A stretch of DNA of 55,737 nt, from positions 1 to 55,737 of the forward strand of contig CAMODB010000005.1 in NCBI GenBank assembly GCA_946611195.1, written 5' to 3'. The DNA comes from an uncultured Bacillota bacterium (GTDB lineage: Bacteria > Bacillota_I > Bacilli_A > ML615J-28 > CAG-313). The notes under the pieces were generated by a model, which did not search any database, was not told where the DNA came from, and worked only from the letters and a program-made list of their open reading frames with translations. Shown here piece after piece: positions 10,783-21,711 of this stretch. The translations under genes were made by a program, and so were the position numbers. How positions within the stretch are numbered: the first letter of the stretch is position 1; each line of letters starts with the position of its first letter.

Positions 10783-10888
10783 CTTAACTTAAGTCCCCCC
10801 ACCCACAAGCAACAAAAGTTTAAGGCTGCTTCAATCACGACCTGACCTGGTTCGCTATGCGACCTTGGATGAAGGTACTTAAATTAAG
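10783..10888 (-). ncRNA. ffs: Signal recognition particle RNA (small bacterial type, ffs/scr)
   Basis: Minus strand ACCAGGUCAGGUC-GUGAUU-GAAGCAGCC aligns with the E. coli 4.5S helix 8 (ACCAGGUCAGGUC-CGGAAG-GAAGCAGCC). Ends pair (cuuaauuuaagu/acuuaaguuaag). Lies directly downstream of tadA, as scr does in Bacillus. Confidence 0.9.
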
Positions 10889-21488: not shown

Positions 21489-21503
21489 CTTTTTTTACCT
21501 CCT

Positions 21504-21540
21504 CAAAAAAATAGAGAGTGTATGACTAACACTCTCTATT
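21504..21540 (-). terminator. Attenuator terminator in the uraA leader
   Basis: AAUAGAGAGUGU-UAGUCAU-ACACUCUCUAUU followed by a U run, immediately before SD GAGGAGG. Confidence 0.85.
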
Positions 21541-21633
21541 AAAATCAAAAATGAATACGAAAGAATATGCTTCACTAAAAGCATCATTAAGATTAAAGTT
21601 CTTTAATTTGTTAAAGTTCTTTAACTTACTCAT
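21526..21633 (-). CDS. Putative 35-aa leader peptide MSKLKNFNKLKNFNLNDAFSEAYSFVFIFDFNREC
   Basis: AGGAAGGUG SD, ATG at 21633, TAG stop in the terminator loop. -10 TATAAT at 21663-21668. Confidence 0.6.
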   Translation of the reverse strand: MSKLKNFNKLKNFNLNDAFSEAYSFVFIFDFNREC

Positions 21634-21711
21634 AGCGTTTCACACCTTCCTTATTTCAACATATTATACCTTTTTTTTAAAAATAAATCTAGTTGAATAC
21701 ACTTTTATTTT

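Follow-up and report, generated by a model that had tools for sequence, protein, structure and literature searches.

The 55,737-nucleotide window analysed here (contig CAMODB010000005.1 of assembly GCA_946611195.1, positions 1 to 55,737) comes from an uncultured, Acholeplasmatales-like gut bacterium, not from a Bacillus, and carries a gene for a uracil-type nucleobase permease. The leader of this gene contains a short upstream open reading frame (uORF) that ends in the loop of an intrinsic terminator, and it is probably a translation-coupled transcription attenuator, in which RNA polymerase and the first ribosome race one another. Judged from its sequence and that of its relatives, this attenuator seems to be sensitive to UTP and to take the place of PyrR in the lineage. 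The same design is found in about 60 divergent loci, as opposed to about 3 expected by chance, which supports the reading as a leader-peptide attenuator, proposed earlier in a first-pass annotation made from the sequence alone. Leader-peptide attenuation of transcription is held to be chiefly a Gram-negative mode of control, and the Bacillota are thought to use PyrR, T-boxes, TRAP and riboswitches, since their polymerase outruns the ribosome.

Anatomy of the permease leader

All elements of the leader lie on the minus strand, between 21691 and 21486 (Table 1). The first-pass annotation had listed a promoter, a Shine-Dalgarno (SD) sequence, a 35-codon frame, a small hairpin, a U-rich tract and a terminator with the leader stop codon in its loop, and every one of these is present, the promoter being the weakest part of the list. 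The terminator consists of a 5' arm (21540-21529), a loop (21528-21522) and a 3' arm (21521-21510), the last two T's of which open a seven-U run (21511-21505), and the TAG of the uORF (21528-21526) supplies the first three bases of the loop. The 60 nt upstream of the stem contain 52% U, in comparison with 38% in the permease coding sequence (CDS), and the leader folds with a z-score of -4.1 against dinucleotide shuffles. Folding predicts no antiterminator: once the 3' arm is removed, nothing else offers the 5' arm a stable partner. The putative promoter has a perfect TATAAT as its -10 box (21668-21663), and its sole -35 candidate, TAGATT (21691-21686), is weak and separated from it by a 17-nt A/T-rich spacer. 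Canonical promoters occupy the equivalent place in two relatives (loci L002 and L003).

Two features of the predicted fold may bear on the timing of transcription and translation. The small hairpin is present in a co-transcriptional snapshot that ends at 21566, and in the full fold it is replaced by longer-range pairing; it may be a pause hairpin. Furthermore, once the U-rich tract has been transcribed, the GGAAGG of the leader SD sequence pairs in the predicted fold with UUCUUUC (UAUUCUUUC downstream). The same tendency is seen across the family, where the region around the SD sequence pairs with the U-rich or pyrimidine-rich end over 5.6 bases, against 3.8 in shuffles (p=0.002). According to these folding models, the pairing may shut the period for ribosome loading after the tract has been made.

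Within the uORF, an 18-nt tandem duplication encodes KLKNFN twice. Its copies, AAGTTAAAGAACTTTAAC and AAATTAAAGAACTTTAAT, are each nearly palindromic and pair with one another at the tip of the predicted leader hairpin, and the duplication is not kept in the relatives L002, L089 and L156. A reading of the two near-palindromic TTAAAGAACTTTAA copies as a PurBox-like DNA operator was rejected, as they form an in-frame 18-nt duplication and relatives do without them.

With regard to the regulated gene, the top NCBIfam match of its product is the uracil permease PRK10720 (E 3.6e-87, under the equivalog cut-off), the Pfam family Xan_ur_permease is matched with 245 bits, and orthologues are found within permease-upp operons. 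Between the U-run and the permease ATG (21488) there are just 15 nt, all of which belong to the ribosome-binding site. This leaves no space for a promoter between the terminator and the permease, which would consequently be expressed solely via readthrough of the terminator.

Table 1. Features of the permease leader and of the adjoining upstream unit, with positions in the window
Feature	Position	Strand	Basis and remarks
Regulated gene, NCS2 nucleobase permease of UraA/PyrP type, 481 aa	20043..21488	-	NCBIfam, Pfam, orthologue context
Permease Shine-Dalgarno sequence, GAGGAGG	21504-21498	-	Sequence; directly after the U-run
Intrinsic terminator/attenuator	21505..21540	-	Stem-loop 21540-21510, 12-bp stem, 7-nt loop, -15.8 kcal/mol
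Leader ORF (uORF), 35 codons + TAG, peptide MSKLKNFNKLKNFNLNDAFSEAYSFVFIFDFNREC	21526..21633	-	Sequence, ORF list
U-rich tract, proposed RNA polymerase pause region	21541..21566	-	TTCTTT 21565-21560, T5 21551-21547, T4 21544-21541
Small hairpin AUGCUU-UUAGUG-AAGCAU (DNA ATGCTT/AAGCAT)	21567..21584	-	Sequence; directly 5' of the U-rich tract
In-frame 18-nt tandem duplication (KLKNFN x2) within the uORF	21592..21627	-	Sequence, fold
Leader-ORF Shine-Dalgarno sequence, AAGGAAGGTG	21643..21652	-	Sequence; 9 nt 5' of the ATG
Putative leader promoter	21663..21691	-	Sequence reading
Second NCS2-type permease, 471 aa, Xan_ur_permease family	23127-21712	-	Pfam; 3' of the purine riboswitch
Purine riboswitch, RF00167	23344-23240	-	Rfam, 50.7 bits

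The gene upstream of the leader, which encodes the 471-aa permease, is controlled by the purine riboswitch, and the region between it and the 481-aa permease gene spans 223 nt on the minus strand. A terminator scan from 21712 to 21541 found none between the 471-aa gene's stop codon (21714-21712) and the leader. Transcripts of the riboswitch unit therefore also enter the attenuator, whose hairpin would end them too, and the 481-aa permease can be reached from two promoters, one of which is that of the purine-riboswitch unit. Elsewhere in the window, a small signal recognition particle RNA (RF00169, 41.5 bits) is located at 10787-10881 on the minus strand.

Recurrence of the design and what is conserved

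The design was searched for in 173 usable loci of permease relatives, for which the sources were the genome's own relatives (30), contigs taken as one genome per species (80) and metagenomes (80). A strict test, in which an SD sequence, an ATG and a uORF of at least 22 amino acids ending at the terminator were required, found such a frame in 31 of 59 terminator-bearing permease leaders, with 0.8 expected from dinucleotide shuffles. When the terminator criteria were relaxed and uORFs of 18-60 codons were allowed, again with an SD sequence, an ATG and an end at the terminator, the 173 loci yielded 61 uORFs in 117 terminator-bearing leaders, with 3.1 expected. For the window's own locus, the shuffle probability of such an ORF is 0.01. 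The overlap of uORF and terminator, whose conservation the first-pass annotation had suggested checking, is thus kept, although it is the design and not the sequence that persists.

In the recurrent design, an SD sequence and an ATG open a frame of 18-46 codons, whose stop codon lies at or within an intrinsic terminator, and this terminator is located 20-130 nt upstream of the permease start. Counted from the stem's first base, the stop codon begins anywhere from -11 to +25 nt, and the distribution peaks sharply at -1 to -2. Orthologous leaders cannot be aligned outside the terminator; as far as sequence comparison can tell, the frame, the position of the stop and the U-rich (pyrimidine-rich) 3' half are conserved, and the peptide is not.

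These observations bear on the simplest alternative, namely that the ORF is there by chance, that the hairpin is just the terminator of the upstream purine-permease gene, and that the uracil permease is transcribed from an unrecognised promoter. The lack of any terminator between the upstream stop codon (21714-21712) and the hairpin would fit this account, as would the weak -35 box. However, the 15 nt from the U-run to the ATG are taken up by the ribosome-binding site, the design recurs beside different or divergent upstream genes (for instance at L003), and the prediction that relatives lack the uORF was checked and is false. Together with the low shuffle probability at the locus itself, this makes a chance ORF barely credible.

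Short frames that end at a terminator are uncommon in the genome. Under strict criteria, a short ORF with SD sequence and ATG ending at a terminator occurs at 2 of 83 terminator-gene junctions of the window's own genome, one being this leader and the other an artefact where a real gene ends. A relaxed, unbiased scan of 1.62 Mb, which covered the own genome and two contigs of the relative G016, found any such ORF at 10 of 194 junctions. In four of these ten, U makes up at least 48% of the sequence before the stem, and two of the four precede the uracil permease and pyrB. The third lies before a GH2 glycosidase gene, and the fourth, before a gene of 454 aa, has no TTNTTT motif. At the glycosidase junction (G000:C7 ~12025, minus strand), a U-rich ORF of 25 codons, MISSRFLIQNIVFWLLILLFLVIFF, contains four TTNTTT motifs and ends 8 nt upstream of the terminator, with the GH2 gene downstream; it could encode a small membrane protein or be part of a second such attenuator on an unrelated gene.

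What selection has kept in these leaders can be asked from their composition and from closely related pairs. No residue is common to the 59 leader peptides, which are alike in composition only, and their last residue is any of 14 different amino acids. In the last 18 codons of the uORFs, the U fraction at codon positions 1, 2 and 3 is 0.41, 0.49 and 0.51; the hydrophobic permease CDS at these loci has 0.21, 0.41 and 0.39, and the excess at the synonymous third position is significant (p=7e-5). A run of at least five T's lies in the last 60 nt ahead of the stem at 21 of 32 loci (1.8 expected), and TTNTTT precedes the stem at 47 of 59 (10.2 expected), as a rule by 10-30 nt.

When metagenomes were scanned for near-identical counterparts of this leader, nothing came closer than 65% protein identity, and substitution patterns were therefore studied in three other pairs of close relatives, namely L006/L145, L089/L156 and, for pyrB, the leaders L131/L129. 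In all three, the U-rich half and the terminator are nearly invariant in nucleotides, even at synonymous sites. The 5' half of the uORF diverges freely, mostly by non-synonymous changes, and indels come in multiples of three; the KLKNFN duplication of the window's own leader is likewise in frame. In GC-richer relatives, the tract is rich in C and U, with Ser, Pro and Leu codons instead of Phe codons. Leaders of the family fold more stably than their shuffles (mean z -1.5). The comparisons suggest that the constraint acts on the RNA rather than on the peptide.

The question of which signal the ribosome would convey was raised by the first-pass annotation, which offered as an alternative that the Phe codons sense phenylalanine. 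In that case, the leader would be a ribosome-dependent attenuator whose signal is translation capacity or charged tRNA-Phe, with fast translation leading to readthrough and slow translation, or stalling at Phe codons, leading to termination. Seven of the 35 uORF codons specify Phe, the last 18 residues of the family's peptides contain 17.5% Phe as compared with 5.4% in the permease, and the geometry requires merely a ribosome close behind the polymerase. Nevertheless, stalling at Phe codons would reduce uracil uptake, for which no logic is evident, and the genes under such leaders are those for the permease, upp and pyrB, with no Phe gene among them. Furthermore, U is enriched at all codon positions, synonymous third positions included, the GC-richer tracts manage with Ser, Pro and Leu codons, and the antiterminator that classic amino-acid attenuators need is not predicted. 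A Phe or general translation signal is consequently unlikely. A classic attenuator of the phe/leu/his/trp type was also rejected as a class: the seven Phe codons are accompanied by no antiterminator and no Rfam leader family, and the downstream genes are an NCS2 permease, upp or pyrB. An arrest peptide of the TnaC type, or of the kind found in erm, vmlR and tlrB, was rejected for want of any conserved residue.

A different account would make the uORF a gene in its own right, encoding a functional small hydrophobic or membrane peptide such as an accessory subunit of the permease, with the hairpin as an ordinary leaky terminator and no race. Terminators normally sit on the stop codons of real genes here, and 25 of the 59 peptides have a 17-residue transmembrane-like segment after a Lys/Arg-rich N-terminus. 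The other 34 lack such a segment, including the window's own AFSEAYSFVFIFDFNREC, and the absence of any family-wide conserved residue speaks against a functional peptide, as does the invariance of the 3' half in close pairs at synonymous sites. Moreover, the same design precedes pyrB, a gene for a cytoplasmic enzyme, and a strong terminator between co-functional genes with no promoter downstream would silence the permease. On balance, a functional peptide seems distinctly improbable.

PyrR and the pyrimidine-gene context

Independence of PyrR, which the first-pass annotation had inferred from the lack of the PyrR core motif, is supported at several levels. The PyrR-binding loop (RF00515) has no match at the gathering threshold or at E<=10 in the window, nor in the whole genome, and a pattern search (TCCNGNGAGG) for the core ARUCCAGAGAGGYU found it absent from this leader. 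Other Rfam families gave no leader match either, at the gathering threshold or at E<=10, and a riboswitch was rejected on this ground and because orthologous leaders cannot be aligned outside the terminator. The genome was also checked for pyrR itself, as had been suggested: the model NF003545 gives only weak hits at the level of phosphoribosyltransferases (PRTases), with 22 bits, in the own genome, which is 65% complete. Among 41 relatives, near-cut-off hits occur in two, the hit in one case lying immediately 5' of a distant paralogue of the permease, and the remaining hits are weak PRTase matches. With regard to the leaders, 2 of the 26 loci that contain the PyrR core motif (from Streptococcus, Erysipelothrix and others) have the uORF, as against 59 of 147 loci without the motif, so that the uORF design and PyrR sites are nearly mutually exclusive.

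The genes behind these leaders belong to pyrimidine metabolism. In 25 of the 59 uORF loci, upp adjoins the permease gene, in 24 of them directly downstream on the same strand and in one (L033) upstream on the opposite strand; where upp directly follows the permease, the leader would govern an operon for uracil uptake and salvage. Within the family, genus g7 has this type of leader in front of pyrB, with the peptide MNKKGTTGFSLHHGYDKFVFFFSFFSIQMISK and the stop at the base of the terminator. This pyrB leader (L112/L131, G016:C22 about 211990-212200) contains a 32-codon ORF, ..KFVFFFSFFSIQMISK, which likewise stops at the terminator base, and in a second genome (L129 of G045) the ORF is kept with amino-acid changes. 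All 41 relatives have upp, and a true pyrB was found in 9 of them; it was found neither in the own genome (65% complete) nor in a 95%-complete congener that carries the leader. Since upp is general and pyrB mostly absent, dependence on uracil salvage is probable, and these relatives appear to be mostly pyrimidine auxotrophs.

The distribution within the genus is uneven. Among the same-genus relatives G001-G010, four (G002, G004, G006 and G009) have a true pyrB and no permease orthologue, and three (G001, G003 and G007) have the permease and no pyrB. G005 has both, its permease gene standing behind a plain promoter with no leader. In the own genome, upp directly follows recA and has no leader.

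Other pyrimidine genes of these bacteria have leaders of different kinds. The pyrB leaders of the own genus have a terminator and no conserved uORF. Six pyrB leaders (L114, L125, L127, L136, L141 and L142) share a conserved terminator, TTAGTTTTCAAGTCTTT..GATTTGAAAACTA, ahead of which AAAACTAC is a copy of the 3' arm and thus a possible antiterminator; they have neither a uORF nor PyrR, and the element looks like an unknown PyrR-independent control. The pyrG leaders L231, L235, L236, L239-L244 and L247 resemble the reiterative-transcription attenuator of B. subtilis pyrG, in that TATAAT is followed by AAAGAGCC and then by a terminator with a pyrimidine-rich 5' arm (GTTCTCTT...AAGAGGAC), and they have no uORF. 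The pyrG gene of the own genome (G000:C2:76209-77789) is without a leader of this reiterative type. The B. subtilis-type pyrG leaders of the relatives imply that the lineage also uses another repressor-free way of sensing nucleotides.

It could be supposed that a trans-acting factor, either an RNA-binding protein of unknown kind that replaces PyrR or a small RNA, reads the U/C-rich leader and that the ORF is a bystander. In close pairs, no part of the leader is conserved better than the pyrimidine-rich tract, the leaders are more stable than shuffles, and other PyrR-less pyrB leaders of the order keep RNA elements without a uORF, all of which would suit such a factor. It would leave unexplained, however, why about 60 dissimilar leaders, when 3 are expected, combine an SD sequence and an ATG with an open frame that stops at the terminator, and why indels keep the frame. 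In addition, the leaders have no common motif beyond U-richness and no Rfam match. The odds of a trans-acting reader accordingly look slim.

The proposed race and its known counterparts

According to the proposed mechanism, transcription would start about 30 nt upstream of the 35-codon leader ORF. By default, the polymerase would outrun the ribosome, the 12-bp terminator would fold and transcription would end 15 nt before the permease start codon. A hold-up of the polymerase within the U-rich tract, which lies 1-26 nt upstream of the terminator, would allow the leading ribosome to close the gap and pass through the 5' arm of the terminator, and on reaching the TAG in the loop it would cover this arm, so that no hairpin could form and the polymerase would read through into the permease gene. 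The delay would most likely be set by the supply of UTP at the U-runs, or of UTP plus CTP in GC-richer relatives, and NusG-dependent pausing at TTNTTT may reinforce it. Low pyrimidine nucleotides would, in this way, switch on uracil uptake and salvage.

Several published findings suggest that such a race is feasible. In E. coli, a coupled ribosome cuts termination from ~90% to <10% when the stop codon lies <=5 nt from the terminator, and its effect is lost beyond about 27-30 nt (PMC4824070). In B. subtilis, NusG pauses RNA polymerase at TTNTTT via N81/T82, and a NusG-dependent pause allows time for translation of the tlrB leader peptide (PMC12288461). The NusG of the window's own genome (G000:C2:20377-20892, minus strand) has an Asn-Thr pair (..IVRNTPLVTGF..) that aligns with N81/T82 of the B. 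subtilis chain 8ehq_G.

A number of observations weigh against this reading. The consensus promoter scan did not list the leader promoter, whose -35 box is weak. In ordinary genes of the own genome, the spacer between stop codon and terminator has a median of 6 nt, with <=5 nt in 79 of 168 cases and an overlap with the stop in 41 of 168, so that proximity of the two is nothing special here. According to the summary given in PMC7858274, Johnson et al. 2020 took this spacing as a proxy for runaway, uncoupled transcription in B. subtilis and others, and by this measure the lineage, too, seems to transcribe ahead of its ribosomes. With regard to the peptide, the U-richness of the tract is not fully separable from selection for a peptide rich in Phe, Ser and Ile, and the transmembrane-like segment in 25 of 59 peptides points the same way. 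As for the signal, three permease relatives, 61-63% identical, are preceded by canonical purine riboswitches of the guanine type, and at two of these loci riboswitch and leader form a tandem. In these two (L006 2124-2225, minus strand, 79 bits; L145 411-512, plus strand, 83 bits), the riboswitch has its own terminator and lies directly before the uORF; at the third locus (L004 3221-3322, minus strand, 74 bits), no uORF or terminator was found. The window's permease can also be reached from the purine-riboswitch promoter, and on both grounds its substrate and physiological signal may not be purely pyrimidine.

An uncoupled default can also be accommodated by the race between polymerase and ribosome, given that it would make termination the default state, and coupling would have to be made locally, by pausing. 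More tentatively, the leaders, seen here in uncultured Bacilli that are Acholeplasmatales-like or of other kinds, might represent a class of pyrimidine sensors that is widespread in the Bacillota, so far undescribed and independent of any protein, and that would replace PyrR at uracil-salvage operons and sometimes at pyrB. UTP-limited, T-rich pauses of the NusG type would re-create coupling for a single pioneer ribosome, and sequestration of the SD sequence may close the period of loading; this wider proposal, while conceivable, falls somewhat short of probable.

If the reading is true, sensing of nucleoside triphosphates "without repressors" arose more than once, and pause sites can create local coupling in an otherwise uncoupled system. 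It would also offer a simple natural setting in which NusG-dependent pausing and the coupling of RNA polymerase to the ribosome can be studied beyond E. coli. For annotation, the frames of 18-46 codons would be regulatory and should not be called genes, and they would mark pyrimidine-responsive operons in uncultured gut bacteria.

A literature search returned no description of a leader-peptide attenuator on a uracil permease or upp in the Bacillota. Within the phylum, the functional counterpart is the PyrR-dependent attenuator (RF00515) of Bacillus, Lactococcus and Streptococcus, which controls pyrP and the pyr operon and shares with the present leaders a terminator in front of the uracil permease, the same physiological purpose and, as proposed here, the same output, namely termination when pyrimidines are plentiful. 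It differs in its need for the PyrR protein, its binding loop and an antiterminator; here, neither the motif nor the gene was found. The tlrB and vmlR leaders of B. subtilis are a Bacillota precedent, from an organism whose transcription is uncoupled, for a T-rich NusG pause that buys time for the decisive translation of a leader peptide (PMC12288461). Those leaders sense antibiotic-stalled ribosomes and work through alternative RNA structures, whereas the present ones have no conserved arrest peptide, no resistance gene and no predicted antiterminator.

The closest likenesses are found outside the phylum. The first-pass annotation had compared the geometry with that of E. coli pyrBI, which is apt, although rph-pyrE appears closer still. 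Both attenuators, which E. coli shares with Salmonella, use the same principle of occlusion by the ribosome, with UTP-limited pausing as the signal. The likeness to pyrBI and its leader pyrL lies in the dedicated short ORF, the U-rich pause region upstream of the terminator and the proposed occlusion by a ribosome at low UTP; moreover, two genomes of one genus in this order have the design before pyrB itself. The pyrL frame continues past the pyrBI attenuator, whereas the stop codon is here usually at or inside the hairpin. A further difference is that the regulated gene here is a uracil-type permease, often with upp, in the phylum Bacillota, where terminators normally sit on stop codons.

In rph-pyrE, as in the present leaders, the ORF ends a few nt before or at an intrinsic terminator that stands directly before a pyrimidine gene, and readthrough needs a ribosome close behind the polymerase, with neither an antiterminator nor a regulatory protein, as is also predicted here; the commonest stop position of the present family, 1-2 nt before the stem base, matches this geometry. 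By analogy, the extension of the ORF up to or into the terminator, the U-rich tract 10-30 nt upstream and the lack of a predicted antiterminator would make rph-pyrE a closer match than pyrBI. Conversely, the E. coli ORF is the full-size gene rph rather than a dedicated leader of 18-46 codons, the regulated gene is pyrE rather than a permease, and there is no sequence homology between the two. The host of rph-pyrE is a gamma-proteobacterium with coupled transcription and translation and an anti-pausing NusG. The permease leader would thus work like pyrBI and rph-pyrE without being homologous to them, and it differs from them in its gene, its phylum and its regime of coupling.

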